From: a virus
Lineage: Duplodnaviria > Heunggongvirae > Uroviricota > Caudoviricetes
IMG/VR virus record: IMGVR_UViG_2531839667_000010
Coordinates: 1-48,410 of that record
Length of the DNA stretch: 48,410 nucleotides
Reading direction: 5' to 3' (one strand)
Shown: piece by piece, positions 541 to 44,737 of the stretch
How positions within the stretch are numbered: position 1 is the stretch's first letter
Layout: every line of letters starts with the position of its first letter
Position numbers and translations under genes: made by a program
The notes under the pieces: generated by a model
The model's input: only the letters and a program-made list of their open reading frames with translations
Database searches by the model: none
Told to the model about the DNA's origin: nothing

Positions 541-1578
541 TTAACGCTTATCCGCCACCAGTTTGAGCGCGTGTTCCAGCACATTAATGTCTGCACCCGC
601 TTTATGGGCATTTTCACTTAAATAACGCCGCCACTGCCGCGCGCCAGGAATACCCTGGAACAAGCCCAGCATATGCCGGGTAATATGGCCGAGATACGTA
701 CCCTGGCTGAGTTCACGCTCAATGTACGGATACATGGCGCGCACTACCGCCACCGGATCAGCATCAGTATCCGAGGAACCAAAAATCTCTCGGTCTACCG
801 CCGCCAGAATCCCCGGATTCTGATACGCTTCGCGCCCGACCATCACGCCATCCATATGTTGCAAATGCGCTTTAGCCTCTTCCAGCGACTTGATGCCACC
901 GTTAATCGACATCGTCAGATGCGGAAAGTCACGCTTCAGTTGATACACACGCGGATAATCGAGAGGCGGGATCTCACGGTTTTCTTTCGGACTTAACCCA
1001 GAAAGCCAGGCTTTACGTGCGTGGATGATGAACATCTCACACTCACCTTTGCCGGAAACGGTGTTGATGAAATCGCAGAGAAATTCATAGCTGTCCTGAT
1101 CATCGATGCCAATACGCGTCTTCACCGTCACCGGAATCGACACCACATCGCGCATCGCTTTCACGCAGTCGGCAACCAGCTGCGCATTACCCATCAGACA
1201 CGCACCAAACATGCCGTTCTGCACCCGGTCAGACGGGCAGCCGACATTCAGGTTGATCTCATCGTATCCACGCGCTTCTGCCAGCTTCGCACACTGTGCC
1301 AGCGCCGCCGGATCACTACCCCCGAGTTGCAACGCTACCGGATGTTCTTCTTCACTGTACGCCAGGTAATCACCTTTACCGTGAATAATCGCCCCTGTGG
1401 TCACCATTTCGGTATACAGCAACGTATTGCGGGAAAGCAGACGCAAGAAATAGCGGCAATGTCTGTCCGTCCAGTCGAGCATAGGAGCAATGCTAAACCG
1501 AGAATTCCAGTAAACACCAGTTTTTTCAGGCATCACGCTGGTTTGATTAATTTTTTGTGTTTCATGATTATCGTGCAT
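541..1578 (-). CDS. dusA: tRNA-dihydrouridine synthase A
   Basis: 345-aa ORF with the Dus/TIM-barrel flavoenzyme pattern ([19 protein letters not shown]); near-identical to my recollection of E. coli DusA except the first ~30 residues. Confidence 0.95.
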
Positions 1579-1666: not shown

Positions 1667-2764
1667 ATGGCGTACTATAACATAGAGAAACGACTAAAAT
1701 CCGATGGCACACCACGCTATCGCTGTAATGTGATTATCAAAGAAAAAGGTGTTATCACTTACAGGGAAAGCAAAACATTCCCTAAACATGCTCATGCCAA
1801 AACATGGGGCACACAGAAAGTGATGGAATTAGATCTATATGGCATTCCATCATCAAATGCAGTTGACGGACTTACAGTCCGTGACTTACTACACAAATAT
1901 TTAAATGACCCAAATGCCGGAGGTAAAGCAGGCCGTACTAAAAGATATGTGCTGGAACTGCTTATGGATAGTGACATCTCCGCGATCAAACTATCTGAAC
2001 TGACAGAAAATGACGTAATTGAACATTGCAGGCTAAGAAACAACGCTGGTGCAGGTCCAGCTACAGTTAGCCACGATGTTAGTTATCTTGGCAGTGTTCT
2101 GGATGCTGCCAAACCTGTATATGGAATTAATTACACATCAAACCCAGCAAAAGCCGCTCGTCCATATCTACTTAAACTTGGTTTAATTGGTAAATCAAAC
2201 CGTCGTAATCGTAGACCAGCATCTGATGAACTGGACATGCTCATTGAAGGCCTTCAACAACGATCTACTCATAAATGCTCAAAAATTCCGTTCGTTGATA
2301 TCCTCAAATTTTCTGTGTGGTCCTGTATGCGAATCGGAGAAGTATGCCGGTTACGATGGGAAGATCTCGACCAGGAACAAAAATCTATACTCGTAAGAGA
2401 CAGGAAAGATCCACGCAAAAAGGAAGGCAACCACATGAAAGTAGCCTTGCTTGGGGAAGCCTGGGATATCGTCCAACGACAGCCCCAAAAATCGGAATTC
2501 ATTTTTCCATATAACAGCACTTCTGTTACTGCGGGATTTCAGAGGGTAAGAAGCAAATTAGGTATTAAGGATCTGCGATACCATGATTTGCGTAGAGAAG
2601 GGGCAAGTCGCTTATTTGAGGCTGGTTTTAGTATTGAGGAAGTAGCCCAGGTTACAGGGCATCGTTCATTAAACGTGCTATGGCAGGTATATACCGAACT
2701 GTATCCAAAATCTTTACATAATCGTTTTGAAGAGCTCCAAAGGAGCAGAAATAAGATCTCTTGA
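1667..2764 (+). CDS. int: Tyrosine-type phage integrase (dusA-associated arrangement)
   Basis: 365 aa; C-terminal catalytic region with LRYHDLRREGASRL (H-x-x-R) and GHRSLNVLWQVYTEL (Tyr nucleophile); divergent from and immediately beside the dusA 5' end. Confidence 0.9.
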   Translation: MAYYNIEKRLKSDGTPRYRCNVIIKEKGVITYRESKTFPKHAHAKTWGTQKVMELDLYGIPSSNAVDGLTVRDLLHKYLNDPNAGGKAGRTKRYVLELLMDSDISAIKLSELTENDVIEHCRLRNNAGAGPATVSHDVSYLGSVLDAAKPVYGINYTSNPAKAARPYLLKLGLIGKSNRRNRRPASDELDMLIEGLQQRSTHKCSKIPFVDILKFSVWSCMRIGEVCRLRWEDLDQEQKSILVRDRKDPRKKEGNHMKVALLGEAWDIVQRQPQKSEFIFPYNSTSVTAGFQRVRSKLGIKDLRYHDLRREGASRLFEAGFSIEEVAQVTGHRSLNVLWQVYTELYPKSLHNRFEELQRSRNKIS

Positions 2765-2825: not shown

Positions 2826-3044
2826 ATGCGTATTGAAATCTGCATAGCCAAAGAAAAAATGACTAAAATGCCAACCGGTGCTGTGGATGCGTTAAAGGAA
2901 GAATTAACCCGACGCATCAGTAAACGTTATGACGATGTAGAGGTGATCGTAAAAGCCACCAGCAACGATGGCCTTTCTGTTACACGCACCGCAGATAAGG
3001 ATTCTGCAAAAACTTTTGGGGTATTCGGGATAAGTAGTTGTTGA
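2826..3044 (+). pseudogene. dinI: DinI-like protein, 5' portion, interrupted by an IS after codon 64
   Basis: [31 protein letters not shown] resembles the DinI N-terminus as I recall it; the frame runs into IS sequence at 3019 and ends with unrelated residues. Confidence 0.7.
3011..3018. repeat. Target-site duplication (left copy), AACTTTTG
   Basis: Identical 8-mer directly flanks the IS at 5679-5686. Confidence 0.65.
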
Positions 3045-3095
3045 AAACCTTTTGATAAGATCTGCAATTCATTTTTATAGACGGTGAAAGTTGTT

Positions 3096-3123
3096 GTTGA
3101 CCTCCTGATCGGATTCCTATACT
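3096..3123 (+). promoter_or_regulatory. Putative sigma-70 promoter inside the IS
   Basis: GTTGAC(C) then TATACT; spacer 15-16 nt, so sub-optimal. About 250 nt upstream of the ORF6N gene. Confidence 0.3.
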
Positions 3124-3369
3124 GTTTGTCTCACGAGGCGTAGAAACCTCTCCAAAAGCGGTCCGAACCAACCCCGATAGTGTTGGATTTTTTATGCCTG
3201 TTATTCAGTGATTGCACTGTATGCGGTCACACCCCGATCAATGTCGGGAGGGCGACGAATACAACACCCAGCGATGGGGAATAAGTTCGCGGTATCTTTT
3301 GGGCCGTTTCTAACCTCCCGACACCCACTTATGTGGATTTCCGTAGAAAGAAACCAAAAGAGGTCAGTC

Positions 3370-4262
3370 ATGACTAACCATTCTCCAGTAGAAAGCCTGC
3401 CAGTTGTTACCTATAACAGCCTCCCGGTGATCACCACCGAACTGCTGGCAAAACTCTACAATACCGAACCCAAATACATTCAAACCAACACGGCGCGTAA
3501 TGAATCACGTTTCGTTGCTGGAAAGCACTTCTTTAAACTGGAAGGCACTGAATAAAAGACTTTAAGAACAGACCATCTTCAAGAGGGTTAGTTGGTTCTC
3601 GCGCTCGTAGCCTTGTTCTCTGGACGGAGCGCGGTGCCGCTCGCCACGCCAAAATGCTCGAAACCGATCAGGCGTGGGAAGTGTTCGAAAAGCTGGAAGA
3701 CTTCTATTTTAGCCAGAAGGAAAAGGCCGAGCAGATTCGTAAGAATCGCCAGTGTACAGCTACCCAGCTTATCCCGCTGCGCCAAACGGCAGAACGGTTA
3801 ATCACGACAGGCCTCGGCAAAATCTATCCCGACATATGGAAGCTGGTTCATCAGCGCTTCGATGTTGAGCATATCCACCAGTTGCAGCCTGAGCAGGTCG
3901 GTGAAGCCATCGAGTATCTGAACGTGCTGGAAGGTGAGTACCTGGGGCGCGAGACGCTTCCGGCAACCCCATCAGTGCATTTCACCAACGAGGAGCTTTG
4001 CGCTCTCTGCTGGGTATGGAATGCCGCCGAATACATGCGGGAGAAGATAGAGCTGGCCTATCCCGCAATGAAAACTCTCAAGTCTGAATACGCACCGAGC
4101 TTCTACTCAATGGCATTTGAGTATCAGCGAACACTGGAAGCCGGTAGAAAGGTTCTCGAACGGGAAACAAAACACATCGTTCCGCATCCTCACAGCGTGT
4201 CAGATGAAAACTGGCGGCGAGTCCTGCCTCGTCTGCGCCAAAATAGCTTACCTCGCGGATAA
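3370..4262 (+). pseudogene. ORF6N-domain (antirepressor-type) protein gene with a frameshift near 3550
   Basis: N-terminal frame (ATG 3370, GAGG Shine-Dalgarno) ends FFKLEGTE at TAA 3553-3555; a second frame continues ...SLVLWTERGAARHAKMLETDQAWEVFEKLEDFYF to 4262, matching my recollection of the ORF6N family; consistent with loss of one T at ctgaa-t-aaaag. Confidence 0.55.
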
Positions 4263-4276
4263 TAAGGGACAAAACG

Positions 4277-5599
4277 ATGAGCGAGATTGCACCAACGAGC
4301 CTGTTACACCCTCTGAAAGCTACCGTTCTGGATTTTCAGGAGGATGAGCACGACTATCAGTTCAAGGTTGAATACCCGGAGCCGACCTGCTGCCATGCCT
4401 GCGGTGCAGTGTCTGACATCATCCGCTTTAACAAAAAGCTGGTGAAGTACCGGGATGTTCCCATGCACGGGAAGCGCGTCACGCTCTGGGTCGTAACACG
4501 CCGTTATCAGTGCAAATCATGCAAAGGCACATTCACCCCGGCCATCCCCGAGATGGCCGAAGCCCACCGCATGACAAAGCGCTGCTATCAGTACATCATT
4601 AAACGTGCGCTGACCGGCACTAACGCCAGCGTCGCGCAAGATGTTGGCTTTGATGAGTCCGTCACCCGTGGGGTCATCAAGTCCTACTGCGAGCAAAAGG
4701 CGAAGACCTATAAGCCTGTGCTGCCGCGAGTGCTGGGCATTGATGAGCTGTACCTGAACAAAACCTTCCGCTGTGTCCTGACCAACATCGAGCAGGGAAC
4801 CATTATTGACATACTGGAATCCCGGCAAAGTAACGTCATCTACAACCGTCTGGCGCATATGGAAGGCCGTGAGAACGTGCAGATCGTCTGTCAGGATATG
4901 TGGAAGCCATACCGTGACGTTGCCAGCCAGCTATTCCCTAAAGCCAGCATCGTCGTTGACCGCTTCCATATCCAGCGCATGGCTAACGAGGCGATGGAAA
5001 TGCTGCGTAAGTCGCTCAAAAAGGATCTGACAGTACACCACCGACGGCAGCTTAAAGGCGACCGTAAGATGATGTTGATGCGTAAGCGTGACCTTAACCC
5101 TATGCAGCAGATGATTATCGAAACGTGGCTGGATCACTATCCTGAGTTGGGTCTGGCCTATCAGCTCAAGGAAGAGTTCTTTGATATCTGGCTGGCACAG
5201 ACTGAACCTGAGGCCAGAATGCGCTATCAGAACTGGCTGGCAAAGATACCCGAGCATCATAAAAAGCACTGGAAGCCGCTGATAACATCCATGACGAACT
5301 GGGAGAAAGAGATATTCGCCTACTTCGGCCCGGCCCAGCGGAAGACCAACGCCTTTACGGAATCCATCAACCGCAAGATGCGCGATCTGAACCGTGATTC
5401 GCGCGGAATGTCCTTTGAGATGTTCAGGGCTAAAACACTGTTCACTCTCAAGCATAAGTTCAGCAAGCCTAAACCAGTGAAAGAATCACCGTTCACGGTT
5501 GGCTATGTCACCGCTGGTTCGTGGGATCTGGATGATGAAATCCGGGACGATTACGGCGTATCTATCGACGCTATTCTGGAATCCAAAATCGGCGAATAA
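4277..5599 (+). CDS. ISL3-family transposase
   Basis: 440 aa; N-terminal zinc-finger/HTH pattern (CCHACG ... [10 protein letters not shown]) typical of ISL3 transposases; sits between ISL3-like terminal repeats with an 8-bp duplication. Confidence 0.75.
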
Positions 5600-5678
5600 A
5601 TAGCCGCCAACAACACACCCATCATTTTCCATTTAACGGGGTTCGGGATGTCCTAACAACAGGATTTCCCGAATACCC

Positions 5679-5686
5679 AACTTTTG
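5679..5686. repeat. Target-site duplication (right copy), AACTTTTG
   Basis: Identical to 3011-3018. Confidence 0.65.
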
Positions 5687-5742
5687 TTCAGGAGACTCTG
5701 AAAGATACCTGGGAATCTGCTGACGAGTGGTTTGTTCACTAA
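5687..5742 (+). pseudogene. dinI: DinI-like protein, displaced 3' end
   Basis: Joining 3018 to 5687 gives ...[23 protein letters not shown]-stop, resembling the conserved DinI C-terminus. Confidence 0.6.
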
Positions 5743-39347: not shown

Positions 39348-39568
39348 GCCGCACCTCCGAGATGCTTCATGTTTTTTCCGGAGCGAAAGGCTATAAGCGG
39401 CATACTGACGCGGTAATTACGGCCCAGCGGTTCACAAATCACCTTCTGGCATTCACGGTCAACCAGGCTAACACGTAGAACATGCCCTGCAGGCGTGGTG
39501 TACCACTGACCGGGGCGAGGACAACGGAAAGTCTGATTGGTAAATCGTTTGAAAATATTCCGGATCAT
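39344..39568 (-). CDS. Hypothetical small protein
   Basis: 74 aa; ATGA overlaps with both neighbours. Confidence 0.45.
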   Translation of the reverse strand: MIRNIFKRFTNQTFRCPRPGQWYTTPAGHVLRVSLVDRECQKVICEPLGRNYRVSMPLIAFRSGKNMKHLGGAA

Positions 39569-40725
39569 TTGCGCCCCCTTACCTCTGAAGAGTTCAGCGA
39601 CGAATGAATAAGACGGGCAAGAAATGCCGCATCGTTAATTCGGTCATACAGACTTACAGCCAGCGGTGATTCAGCTTTTTCCAGCATGGGATAAAGCTGC
39701 TGCAACCAGACCTGATGAATTGATGAAATGTAGGAATAGAGAACGCTGGCGTTATGTGCAACGTCGCTCAGTACAGAGGGATTTGAAAGCTGTTTCTCCA
39801 TCTGGTTAAAGGCATTGATGTATGCCTCTTTGAACCGGGCAGCACGTTTACCAGTGAAGCCCATAGCAAGGAACGCGAAGCCATCGCGGGTTATTTGATA
39901 GCAAGGTAGTTTGCGAGTACCGCCGTTGGGCTGGCGTACCAAAATTGATGTCTCCGCAAAATTGCGGGCACAAAACTCTGGAGAACAATCCAAAATGCGA
40001 ATCTTTTTCAGAACATCGTCATGACGTTTAGAGAAGAAGTCAGCAACAGCCAAAGAAGATGTAACAGCCTGACCATCAACGATGGCAATTTCAGGTTGAG
40101 AGAGGGTTGGGACAGTAGCCATGATGGCAGCCTCCGTATGCAATGGATAACTTCCACCACCGGAAACGCCAATTTCGCTGGTGGTGAACTGAGCAGGGTT
40201 GGCGTAACCGGCGCATACGGAAACCGGCGCACCTTTCGGTGCCCCCACCCAGCCCACCATAATTTGGGTATAGCTGAGTTGTAGCAACAAAAAAGACGCT
40301 AACGCGCCAATTGTCGCCGTATGCAATTCCAGGACGCCAATCCCGGCACCCGCTTTATAAGGTGCCTGAACAGTGTAACGTCCCGGAATGGCAGAATCAA
40401 TGTGCTGGTGGTCCTTCACACTCAACAAAATCACGCCTGAATTTCCACAAAGGACTAAAGCACTCATGCGGGTAGTCTTTGCGAAGATAGATAACGCGCT
40501 GTGTTTCTGGCTCCCAACGAATAACATGGACATAAAGCCCTCTTCCGTCACGAAACCAGCGGTTAAGTTCCTGCACAACTCGCCCCCCACAGTCAGGTAA
40601 AGTTCTCTGTGGTTACTTACAGCCAGGTGATTTGGTAATCTGCATTCATGCCGTAACAACAGGTGTTCAGCGACGCTGACCACCAGCTGTTGCGACAAAC
40701 GGTTATTTGCCGTTAAACTGTTCAT
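39565..40725 (-). CDS. Rha-domain phage regulatory protein (start uncertain)
   Basis: Rha-type domain (...IVDGQAVTSSLAVADFFSKRHDDVLKKI...) in residues about 205-300. The longest ORF starts at 40725, coupled to the upstream stop; an internal ATG at 40121-40123 with a GGAGG Shine-Dalgarno would give a 186-aa Rha protein. Confidence 0.55.
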   Translation of the reverse strand: MNSLTANNRLSQQLVVSVAEHLLLRHECRLPNHLAVSNHRELYLTVGGELCRNLTAGFVTEEGFMSMLFVGSQKHSALSIFAKTTRMSALVLCGNSGVILLSVKDHQHIDSAIPGRYTVQAPYKAGAGIGVLELHTATIGALASFLLLQLSYTQIMVGWVGAPKGAPVSVCAGYANPAQFTTSEIGVSGGGSYPLHTEAAIMATVPTLSQPEIAIVDGQAVTSSLAVADFFSKRHDDVLKKIRILDCSPEFCARNFAETSILVRQPNGGTRKLPCYQITRDGFAFLAMGFTGKRAARFKEAYINAFNQMEKQLSNPSVLSDVAHNASVLYSYISSIHQVWLQQLYPMLEKAESPLAVSLYDRINDAAFLARLIHSSLNSSEVRGRK

Positions 40726-41516: not shown

Positions 41517-41548
41517 TTCTGTCTCCCGTTAAATTACGTTAAGCAGAA

Positions 41549-41611
41549 ATGTAGGATATCCAACATACCAATGTCAAGAATCCTACATGGGCATGTGGTA
41601 GGATTGCCTAC
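41549..41611. promoter_or_regulatory. OR operator cluster with divergent pR/pRM
   Basis: 18-bp palindrome ATGTAGGATATCCAACAT (41549-41566) plus degenerate copies at 41571-41588 and 41593-41610. Confidence 0.6.
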
Positions 41612-42265
41612 ATGATGAACATGAGTGATCGTATTCGCCAAAGGCGAAAAGAACTGAACCTGACACAACAAGCACTGGCTGATTTGACTGGTGTGAACCG
41701 TGTCACGGTTACTGGATGGGAAAAGGACGACTACCAACCAAATGGAGCCAACCTTCAAGCCCTAGCCAACGCACTTAAATGCGATCCTCTGTGGCTTGTT
41801 AGCGGAAAAGGCTCGCCTGAACCAAAGATAAATCTAAAACCTGAAATATTCGCAGTTAAAAAAGTCCCCCTCATCTCGTGGGTTCAGGCGGGTTCATGGA
41901 CAATGACGGAGCCTGGTGTCAGGAAAGAAGATGCTGAAGAGTGGGTTTATACTACCGCCATTGTATCAGAAATGGCATTTGCACTACGGGTCCGTGGTGA
42001 TTCAATGACCAATCCCCTCGGCTCACCATCGATACCAGAAGGTTCTATCGTTATCGTAGAGCCAGATATTATTGATACAGAGTGTATTAACGGAAAAATC
42101 GTTGTTGCCCATATCAATGGTGGGCAAGAAGCGACACTCAAAAAATTTGTTGAGGACTGGCCGAACAGGTATCTCGTCCCACTAAATCCTAACTATAAAA
42201 CTATTGAATGCGGTGAGAACTGCAGAATAGTTGGTCTTGTCAAACAAGTAATAATGGATTTTTGA
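41612..42265 (+). CDS. cI: CI-type prophage repressor (HTH plus S24 LexA-like autopeptidase)
   Basis: 217 aa; N-terminal HTH (LTQQALADLTGV), C-terminal RVRGDSM Ser nucleophile and downstream Lys. Confidence 0.9.
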   Translation: MMNMSDRIRQRRKELNLTQQALADLTGVNRVTVTGWEKDDYQPNGANLQALANALKCDPLWLVSGKGSPEPKINLKPEIFAVKKVPLISWVQAGSWTMTEPGVRKEDAEEWVYTTAIVSEMAFALRVRGDSMTNPLGSPSIPEGSIVIVEPDIIDTECINGKIVVAHINGGQEATLKKFVEDWPNRYLVPLNPNYKTIECGENCRIVGLVKQVIMDF

Positions 42266-42286
42266 CACATCTTCCTCACTATCGCA

Positions 42287-42311
42287 AAACCGGGGTATCC
42301 CCGGTTTTTTT
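42287..42311 (+). terminator. Rho-independent terminator after cI
   Basis: Stem ccggggtatccccgg followed by T7. Confidence 0.7.
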
Positions 42312-42327: not shown

Positions 42328-42385
42328 ATGTAGGATAACCAACATAAACTCTTGACACTCACATGTTGGATATCCTACATTTGTT
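42328..42385 (+). promoter_or_regulatory. OL operators and pL promoter
   Basis: Two copies of the 18-bp operator (ATGTAGGATAACCAACAT 42328-42345; ATGTTGGATATCCTACAT 42363-42380) flank TTGACA (42352-42357); the second operator overlaps the -10 region. Confidence 0.6.
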
Positions 42386-42445
42386 TTTAGAGTAGCCGCC
42401 GGTGGCGTATGAATGACCGGATGATTCGCTGACAGAAAACTTAGG

Positions 42446-42829
42446 TTGGGGGTAGAGGTTTACATGAATCATTTATTCACATGCTCATTTTGCGGAGCAA
42501 CCGAACTGGGAGCGATAAAGATCGTCGCAAAAGGTGGTAAGGACGAACCTGCCATCTGTTCGGAATGCGTAGTCACATGTGTAGAAAAAATGATCCTGAC
42601 TAAAAAATCAGAGGCTGAAAAACCAACCTCTGATAACGAAATAATATCAGTCGATAAAAAACTATTTAAAGAGCTTCTTCAGCTTGTCCTCAACCATCCT
42701 GATTTCGGAAGTAAGCTGGCTGCTGTTGACATTGATAGTAGCTCCACATCGACAAGTGAAACTTTTGTTCGACTTGAGCCAAGCGATTTTCTTCTTCGTC
42801 TTAGTGCCGCACTTAGGGCATGCGGGTAA
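42446..42829 (+). CDS. ClpX-type C4 zinc-finger protein, first gene of the pL operon
   Basis: 127 aa; N-terminus FTCSFCGATELGAIKIVAKGGKDEPAICSECVVTC resembles the ClpX zinc-binding domain (CSFCG...ICxEC) as I recall; GAGG Shine-Dalgarno 6 nt before the ATG; no AAA+ domain. Confidence 0.55.
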   Translation: MGVEVYMNHLFTCSFCGATELGAIKIVAKGGKDEPAICSECVVTCVEKMILTKKSEAEKPTSDNEIISVDKKLFKELLQLVLNHPDFGSKLAAVDIDSSSTSTSETFVRLEPSDFLLRLSAALRACG

Positions 42830-42942
42830 CGTAATTTCCTGGTTATCAAAAGCGCCCATAAACATCCCTCTTGGTTGTGTGAGAACACCAAGATACCACC
42901 GCGCCTGATGTGGTTAAAAGCAGGCTAAAGCAATAACAAGTA

Positions 42943-43003
42943 ACTCCCTGTTCTGGCGGCCCGGTGTTTTCCCGTGTATTTCCGGTAACCGCCAGCCTTT
43001 TTC
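42943..43003 (+). terminator. Terminator-like hairpin after the first pL gene (tL1-like position)
   Basis: Stem ctggcgg/ccgccag around a 29-nt loop, followed by CCTTTTTC. Confidence 0.3.
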
Positions 43004-43171
43004 AGGGCACAACAGAAAAGGGCATCACCGGGCGACGGGCTCATAACCCAATCCACCCGGGCAAAAAGAAAGCGGTCTCTGCAAGCCGCCGACCAATGCA
43101 GGTGCCCTTCTCTGTTGTGTATGGAGAAACTAACTTTTTAGCGCCGGTGCAGAGGCGTTGAGGAACCGAGA

Positions 43172-44089
43172 ATGAACAATCCGTTTTTCAAAAATATGTT
43201 GGTGTATCGCATTAGTCGCGATTTCACCATCAACCAGGAAGAGCTGGAACAGCAGCTTGAACTATTTCGCTTCACTCCATGCGGTAGCCAGGATATGGCA
43301 AAAACCGGTTGGGTATCACCACTTGGTCAGCTGTCAGATCGCTTGCATCACACTGTCAATAATCAAGTGTTGTTGGTTATTCGCCGGGAAGAAAAAATAC
43401 TGCCATCTCCTGTCATTGCTGAAGAACTGCGCAAGCGTGTGTCGCGTCTGGAATCCGATCAGGGGCGTCGCCTCAAAAAAACTGAGAAAGATTCGCTGCG
43501 TGATGAAGTGTTGCACTCCCTGCTTCCTCGGGCGTTCTCCAAAAACTCGACTGTTAGTTTGTGGATCAACGTCACCGACGGTCTGATCATGGTTGATGCA
43601 GCCAGCGCTAAACGTGCCGAAGACTCACTGGCCCTGCTTCGTAAAACTCTCGGTTCTCTCCCGGTGGTACCGCTGACTATGGAAACGCCGATCTAACTAA
43701 CTATGACCGAATGGGTTCGTTCCGGTAGTGCGCCTGCTGGCTTTGGCCTGGGTGATGAAGCCGAACTGAAAGCTATTCTTGAAGATGGCGGTATTGGACG
43801 CTTTAAAAAACAGACTCTGGTCAGTGACGAAATTCATGTGCATCTGGAAGCTGGCAAAGTAGTTACAAAGCTGTCTATCGACTGGCAACAGCGCATTCAG
43901 TTCGTTCTTTGCGATGACGGCAGCATCAAACGCCTTAAGTTCTCTAATGAGATTACAGAACAAAACGACGATATCGACCGTGAGGATGCGGCTCAGCGGT
44001 TCGACGCTGACTTTGTTCTGATGACCGGCGAGCTTATCTCTCTCATTAACGGATTAACAACCTCTCTCGGCGGCGAAGCCAAGCGATAA
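43172..44089 (+). pseudogene. rdgC: RdgC-like recombination-associated protein, interrupted by one in-frame TAA
   Basis: Listed ORFs 43172..43696 and 43703..44089 are in the same frame, separated only by TAA at 43694-43696; together they resemble full-length RdgC as I recall ([11 protein letters not shown]..., ...[19 protein letters not shown]...). Confidence 0.75.
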
Positions 44090-44170: not shown

Positions 44171-44737
44171 GTGCAGCGCGCCAATATGGAGAAAACCATG
44201 AGCTACATTCAGACATTATCCGGCAAACATTTTAATTACCTCGATATCCAACAGGACGATATCGTGATCGAGGATATTGCTACCGCGTTGTCTCATATCT
44301 GCCGCTTTGCAGGGCATCTTCCTGAGTTTTACAGTGTCGGCCAGCATAGCGTTTTAACCAGCCACCTCGTTCCGCAGGAGTTTGCATTAGAAGCACTGCT
44401 TCATGATGCTGCTGAAGCCTACCTGCAGGACATCCCCTCCCCACTTAAGCGCCTGCTTCCGGATTACCAGGCAATCGAAGCTCGTGTGGACGCAGCCATT
44501 CGGCAGAAGTTCGGTCTACCAACTGAGCAACACCCAACCGTGAAATATGCCGACCTGGTGATGCTCGCCAGCGAACGCCGCGATTTTGAGATTGACGAAG
44601 GTTCCATTTGGCCATGCCTCGAGGGAGTTGTCCCAACGGATTTATTCATTATCAACCCAGTTCGTCCTGGCCAGTCATACGGCATGTTCATCAATCGCTT
44701 TAACGAGTTGATGGAGCAGCGCCAATGCGCCGCATGA
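44171..44737 (+). CDS. HD-domain phosphohydrolase
   Basis: His and His-Asp motifs (SVGQHSVL..., ALLHDAAEAY); likely true start at ATG 44198 (GGAG Shine-Dalgarno). Confidence 0.7.
   Translation: MQRANMEKTMSYIQTLSGKHFNYLDIQQDDIVIEDIATALSHICRFAGHLPEFYSVGQHSVLTSHLVPQEFALEALLHDAAEAYLQDIPSPLKRLLPDYQAIEARVDAAIRQKFGLPTEQHPTVKYADLVMLASERRDFEIDEGSIWPCLEGVVPTDLFIINPVRPGQSYGMFINRFNELMEQRQCAA

Follow-up and report, generated by a model that had tools for sequence, protein, structure and literature searches.

The window analysed here, that is, the whole 48,410-nucleotide stretch of DNA presented above, is from E. coli 3003 and contains a lambdoid prophage integrated at dusA. Read from the left, it carries dusA, the integrase gene, the tail, head and terminase genes, the lysis genes, a Q-like antiterminator gene together with genes of the replication region, and then a minus-strand cro-like gene and a plus-strand cI-like gene. 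After these comes a series of early genes, likewise on the plus strand, the last of which, close to the right attachment site, encode a 3'-5' exonuclease and a PrtN-like protein. Within this early run lies a homologue of rdgC that is interrupted by a single in-frame stop codon; its position, along with those of the other features discussed below, is given in Table 1.

Table 1. Features of the dusA prophage and of its interrupted rdgC gene, in window coordinates
Feature	Position	Strand	Basis or remark
dusA	541-1578		
Integrase gene	1667-2764		
dinI-like gene, two pieces	2826-3017 and 5680-5742		Split by ISL3-family element
ISL3-family element, 2,660 bp	3019-5678		Inside dinI-like gene
ORF6N fragment, antirepressor-like ORF	3208-3555		In ISL3-family element
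sRNA-Xcc1 match	3243-3330		Rfam; in ISL3-family element
P22_AR_C antirepressor-like ORF	3654-4262		In ISL3-family element
ISL3 transposase gene, 440 aa	4277-5599		In ISL3-family element
C4 antisense RNA	40177-40264	-	Rfam, 80.7 bits; within ORF 39565-40725 (-)
isrK	40289-40365	-	Rfam, 61.2 bits; within ORF 39565-40725 (-)
cI-like repressor gene	41612-42265	+	Pfam HTH_3 and Peptidase_S24
Intrinsic terminator after repressor gene, CCGGGG-TAT-CCCCGG and seven T	42286-42311	+	Fold -17 kcal/mol, z = -3.5
Two 18-bp palindromic operator-like sites (42328-42345 and 42363-42380)	42328-42380	.	Repeat search
Inferred early-left promoter, TTGACA, 18-nt spacer, TACATT	42352-42381	+	Consensus scan
ClpX-type C4 zinc finger protein gene, first of inferred early-left operon	42464-42829	+	Pfam, RefSeq of relatives, PHROG 20296
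rdgC homologue, 305 codons, interrupted at codon 175 (pseudogene in E. coli 3003)	43172-44089	+	Pfam, 2OWL, PHROG 724
N-terminal ORF, 174 aa and TAA	43172-43696	+	ORF list; GenBank EII88631.1
Ochre stop TAA, T at 43694 in place of G of GAA (Glu175)	43694-43696	+	Allele comparison
C-terminal ORF, 128 aa, from in-frame ATG	43703-44089	+	ORF list; GenBank EII87881.1
HD-type deoxyribonucleoside 5'-monophosphate phosphatase-like gene, next downstream	44198-44737	+	PHROG 318, E = 8.8e-97; RefSeq start in relatives

The earlier note on this DNA had described two adjacent ORFs in the same frame that are split by a TAA, and this is borne out by both the sequence and the list of ORFs. The two ORFs share one frame and have between them only the TAA and two sense codons, with positions 43688-43714 reading CCG ATC TAA CTA ACT ATG ACC GAA TGG, i.e. 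P I stop L T M T E W. The N-terminal piece matches the Pfam RdgC family, PF04381, with E = 9.6e-64 and 215.9 bits over profile positions 2-168, and the stretch after the stop matches the same family with E = 2e-45 and 155.8 bits over positions 173-298 (of 298), both scores being above the gathering score of 25 bits that serves as the threshold for RdgC membership. The two matches follow each other colinearly within a single frame, with no part of the profile unaccounted for, and a two-half match to RdgC of this kind is far beyond chance. The claim that both halves are well-conserved RdgC sequence therefore stands, and the alignment that had been proposed as a check, in which a lack of colinearity would have told against the idea, has now been run and finds the halves colinear with RdgC. 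The Glu that the note had placed at the site of the stop (PIELTLTEW) is likewise present in E. coli chromosomal RdgC, as PDB entry 2OWL reads ENPIELTLTEW with its Glu aligned to the stop; Pseudomonas aeruginosa RdgC (2OWY) has Thr at the same position, such that the residue is not conserved universally. In its intact (repaired) form, the product matches PHROG 724 over residues 1-304 (E = 3.9e-125), and this full-length match, combined with the location in a prophage, places it among the phage RdgC/HrdC proteins. However, the centre, tip and base domains of RdgC are not encoded here in one uninterrupted frame, and because of the TAA at codon 175 the gene is classed as an rdgC pseudogene rather than counted among the functional members of the family.

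Among known relatives, the intact allele has 67% identity to E. coli RdgC (2OWL) over 301 residues without a gap (E = 9.2e-136), and it shares with both 2OWL and the P. aeruginosa protein 2OWY the same order of domains (centre, tip, centre, base) as well as conserved tip-interface motifs. The prophage product differs from these two proteins in being cut at codon 175, and thus in being without the base domain of interface B (PMC1885664), and it differs from chromosomal RdgC in its location, as it is encoded in the early-left region of a prophage and not at the chromosomal rdgC locus. It belongs to the same phage branch as the HrdC proteins of P1 and P7 and PHROG 724, P1 hrdC having 56% identity. 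Homologues are encoded by 355 phage records, and this copy is set apart from the other phage RdgC homologues by its nonsense mutation. Its place just beyond a cI-like repressor gene is that of the lambdoid RdgC genes described in PMC12315714. Lambda RexA, whose gene adjoins cI, is a structural relative of RdgC (PMC11077077); however, only the folds are alike, the prophage protein being a bona fide RdgC by sequence, and no rexB-like partner was identified. A role as a defence system was also considered and rejected, since PADLOC gave no hits to RdgC or to its neighbours.

The direction of the change can be read from intact alleles. A megablast against 5,426 complete E. coli genomes returned 35 records (33 genomes) with 99.0-99.9% identity, all of them under rdgC features. 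Three of the 35, one per identity group (AH04, Nissle 1917 and the O68:H12 strain 97.3), were read in detail, and each has an uninterrupted 918-nt CDS (305 aa) with GAA at codon 175. The closest intact allele is that of E. coli AH04, AH02, CT01 and ET5; over the 1051-nt query, the window and the AH04-type allele disagree at position 43694 alone, where AH04 has G and the window has T, and this is the sole difference in the 918-nt gene, the next-nearest differences lying at 42415 and 45354. With a 71-nt probe centred on the stop, all 35 records matched at 98.6% or 97.2% (one to two mismatches) and none was identical. The exact intact allele is present on 474 contigs, and the other members of its 90% cluster (243 members) that reach past the stop site read PIELTMT. 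Based on these comparisons, the T at 43694 is a derived G-to-T transversion that converted the GAA of Glu175 into an ochre TAA. The TAA allele was found neither in GTDB representative genomes nor in JGI metagenomes by exact 20-mer scans, and a megablast of the phage collection yielded only a 78-nt match and no near-identical phage record; the allele is restricted to the E. coli 3003 strain or lineage. Because 1051 bases of the nearest intact allele differ from the window in this T alone, the nonsense mutation is read as recent, a single derived substitution unaccompanied by secondary decay. Of the explanations that the earlier note had left side by side, it is thus the very recent nonsense mutation that agrees with the alleles, there being no other difference between 42415 and 45354.

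How the gene would be expressed was assessed from its surroundings. Three palindromic operator-like sites of 18-19 nt (ATGTAGGATATCCAACAT) were found, one at 41549-41566, between the cro-like and cI-like genes, and the other two beyond the repressor gene. A divergent promoter at 41577-41548 (minus strand) has hexamers identical to those of the early-left promoter on the plus strand; both promoters face outward and each overlaps an operator. By consensus, then, rdgC appears to be the second gene of a repressor-controlled early-left operon with a putative promoter and putative operators, and the repressor transcript probably ends at the terminator that follows the repressor gene. In a few lambdoid phages, RdgC homologues lie just left of cI and are perhaps within the cI transcript (PMC12315714). 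In the present prophage, the presence of a terminator and an operator-covered promoter between cI and rdgC suggests that rdgC is an early lytic gene rather than a part of the cI transcript. Since it would lie behind a repressible promoter, rdgC would be silent in the lysogen, where the mutation is probably neutral. The premature stop could exert polarity on the phosphatase-like gene next downstream.

Several other features of this neighbourhood deserve mention. The terminator looks bidirectional and divides the repressor gene from the early-left operon, with the promoter and operator regions at 41535-41579 and 42328-42394. Upstream of rdgC is a 342-nt untranslated gap with a long-range stem at 42998-43130 (plus strand), the arms of which (43008-43024 and 43103-43119) are 94% complementary; the upstream-gap fold (186 nt) has -71.2 kcal/mol and z = -3.2, and it matches no Rfam family. 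Indeed, Rfam found nothing near rdgC, the three hits in the window all being elsewhere. Antisense to the 3' half of the ClpX-type zinc finger gene is an unannotated ORF at 42662-42865 (minus strand; 67 aa) with a CPKC...CRC zinc-ribbon pattern, which on its own strand leads into a strong terminator-like hairpin (42634-42607; stem of 12 bp, T-run). For this ORF, Pfam gave only a sub-threshold match (Lar restriction alleviation, E = 0.0056), and there was no match in PHROG or PADLOC.

The likely consequence for the protein follows from the known structure of RdgC. In P. aeruginosa RdgC, the centre domain consists of residues 1-73 and 121-167, the tip of residues 74-120 and the base of residues 168-306, and the ring dimer is closed by interface A, involving tip and centre, and interface B, a β-sheet between the two bases (PMC1885664). 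In the alignment with 2OWY, codon 175 falls on P. aeruginosa residue 173, such that the stop appears to be about five residues or less from the boundary between centre and base; the 174-aa product would therefore be essentially centre plus tip, and the 128-aa ORF would encode nearly the whole of the base domain. With no base domain there would be no ring closure via interface B, and hence the most likely outcome is loss of function by truncation, with ring-shaped DNA binding gone. Altogether, we consider it very probable that the locus holds a real, recent and lineage-private nonsense mutation that has made a pseudogene of rdgC in an otherwise intact prophage, the TAA being an ordinary gene-inactivating mutation and not a special decoding signal. 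In the course of events that we propose, a G-to-T transversion at 43694 would have turned the GAA of Glu175 into an ochre TAA in the dusA prophage of E. coli 3003, and in the lysogen, with rdgC repressed and unexpressed, the mutation would have been selectively neutral. On induction, translation would stop after 174 residues, i.e. after centre and tip, and the product, without a base domain, would fail to close the RdgC ring dimer and would lose ring-shaped DNA binding, while the base domain may be made to some extent as a separate fragment, by re-initiation at the ATG 6 nt beyond the stop. In most respects the gene resembles ordinary prophage pseudogenes that arise by point mutation or IS insertion, as here too an accessory gene that is not essential carries one derived lesion while the prophage is otherwise intact; what sets it apart is only that the stop coincides with a domain boundary.

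That coincidence is the starting point for a different reading, namely that the gene has been split into two working parts, the 174-aa centre-and-tip piece and a re-initiated 128-aa base fragment, which would associate or act separately (the N-fragment might, for instance, use the tip interface to pair with host RdgC), so that RdgC-related activity is altered and not lost. We judge this to be very unlikely. It would account for a stop at the equivalent of P. aeruginosa residue 173, when the base domain starts at 168, and for the retention in the N-fragment of the tip-interface motifs KILPSPV and LLPRAF (PMC1885664). There is also an ATG at 43703, separated from the stop by a spacer of 6 nt, and a functional protein in two pieces would require just such a layout of boundary, stop and ATG; however, the 20 nt upstream of that ATG contain no Shine-Dalgarno-like sequence. 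For lacI and T4 rIIB, it is established that translation can restart near a nonsense codon, and low-level termination-reinitiation near a stop is possible. The nearness of the stop to the boundary also has to be set against chance: 79 codons are one substitution from a stop, by 88 paths, and three of the 88 paths (3.4%) are in codons 165-180, meaning that roughly 3% of nonsense paths would hit the boundary by chance. Being a post hoc observation, the coincidence is noteworthy but weak evidence. Moreover, no more than one strain or lineage has this arrangement, and other split rdgC genes break at other positions. A two-piece product is conceivable, though without support.

The other broken genes are instructive in their own right. 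Within the same 90% cluster, one allele ends ...RRLKKN(stop), which is consistent with an extra A in an A7 run (an apparent homopolymer frameshift), and another shifts frame near residue 121, the 58.8-kb contig that carries it having also a matching C-terminal ORF of 166 aa. In the P1-like phage vB_EcoM-813R1 (locus L008), two genes are annotated RdgC1 and RdgC2, the pieces ending at about residue 100 and starting at about residue 149 in converted coordinates. The idea of recurrent splitting at one site was rejected, as vB_EcoM-813R1 and the other broken prophage alleles break elsewhere; the broken rdgC copies look like sporadic decay and not like a conserved two-gene architecture. Two PHROG entries, 13439 and 21369, are half-length RdgC families, one profile being N-terminal (181 positions) and the other C-terminal (154). 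These families, as well as RdgC1 and RdgC2, may be fragments of broken rdgC/hrdC genes that were catalogued as separate families.

Another proposal, raised in the earlier note, is that the TAA is decoded by an ochre suppressor tRNA of the host, or is passed by leaky termination, to give useful full-length RdgC. The base after the TAA is C, and UAA followed by C was reportedly placed among the weaker UAA contexts in E. coli by Poole, Brown and Tate in 1995. The remaining evidence, however, points the other way. Programmed read-through would go with a stop conserved among orthologues, whereas the stop is conserved in none of the 35 E. coli records (the three alleles that were read having GAA) and is absent from GTDB representatives and JGI metagenomes. 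A suppressor tRNA gene or a stimulatory RNA would be expected nearby; however, ARAGORN found no tRNA genes in the 48-kb window, and the RNA 3' of the stop forms no stimulatory structure, folding no better than shuffled sequence (z = +0.92). The flanks of the stop are identical to those of intact alleles, so nothing has evolved around it in adaptation. Finally, UAA is the main stop codon of E. coli, a species in which very little basal read-through occurs and in which ochre suppressors work weakly and at a cost. Useful read-through is, accordingly, highly improbable.

A sequencing or assembly error, with G as the true base and an intact gene, is comparably hard to credit. A single-base difference from otherwise identical alleles is what such an error would leave, and errors of this sort do occur in old draft assemblies. 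However, an exact-sequence look-up found the 174-aa and 128-aa products in E. coli 3003 (GCA_000194665.2, contig AFAF02000002.1, 2.7 Mb) and also in a second NCBI assembly, GCA_002466085.1 (contig NJLO01000029.1, 57 kb); both products are recorded, in addition, from a Logan read-based assembly, and there was no occurrence beyond these three assemblies. The window has no mismatches to the AFAF02 and NJLO01 contigs over 15,239 and 9,706 compared bases, respectively, and no difference separates the two contigs from each other in a comparison of 14,992 bases that took in host flank. Their different accession prefixes and very different contig structures mark them as separate assemblies that carry the identical T, which makes a random base-calling error unlikely. 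The change is, furthermore, a substitution outside a homopolymer, and such substitutions are not typical sequencing-platform artefacts. The sequencing error that the earlier note had listed as an alternative thus fares poorly, given the same T in two NCBI assemblies and the truncated product in Logan. The two NCBI assemblies could represent one strain sequenced twice or two related isolates, and only two isolates would speak for persistence of the mutation in nature; no papers were found on strain 3003 or on either assembly.

With the TAA taken as an ordinary inactivating mutation, its significance is mainly one of annotation, beyond which the case has little importance. EII88631.1 and EII87881.1 are best treated as fragments of one rdgC pseudogene and not as separate gene families, and the half-length RdgC families of PHROG may have a similar origin. 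The TAA allele could also serve as a natural null for probing the role of phage RdgC during induction.

The rest of the prophage is in good order. When the prophage proteins of strain 97.3 were compared with the window by tblastn, rdgC was the sole aligned gene with an internal stop, and all 25 of the 25 matching structural, packaging, lysis and methyltransferase genes (gpJ through DNA methyltransferase) were full-length, with 93-100% identity. Having just two lesions, both in dispensable genes, the prophage appears to be a recent arrival or to be functional still. The second lesion is the ISL3-family element in the dinI-like gene; its terminal inverted repeats (GGGTATTCGGGA...) are imperfect and 24 nt long, and 8 bp of target, AACTTTTG, are duplicated. 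DinI and RdgC both modulate RecA, and so both prophage homologues of RecA modulators are disrupted. We regard the damage to both genes as a coincidence worth recording and not as evidence of selection; that the lysogen was selected for altered RecA control, with a functional centre-and-tip fragment that, for example, pairs by its tip with host RdgC and blocks ring closure, seems most improbable. One further observation concerns the minus-strand ORF at 39565-40725 (386 aa), which matches Pfam Ash over residues 117-211 and Rha over residues 222-311 and whose Ash-coding part is overlapped by the C4 antisense RNA and isrK genes; the ORF probably reaches too far at its 5' end, or else this is an overlap of RNA and coding sequence such as that in P1- or Gifsy-type immunity regions.
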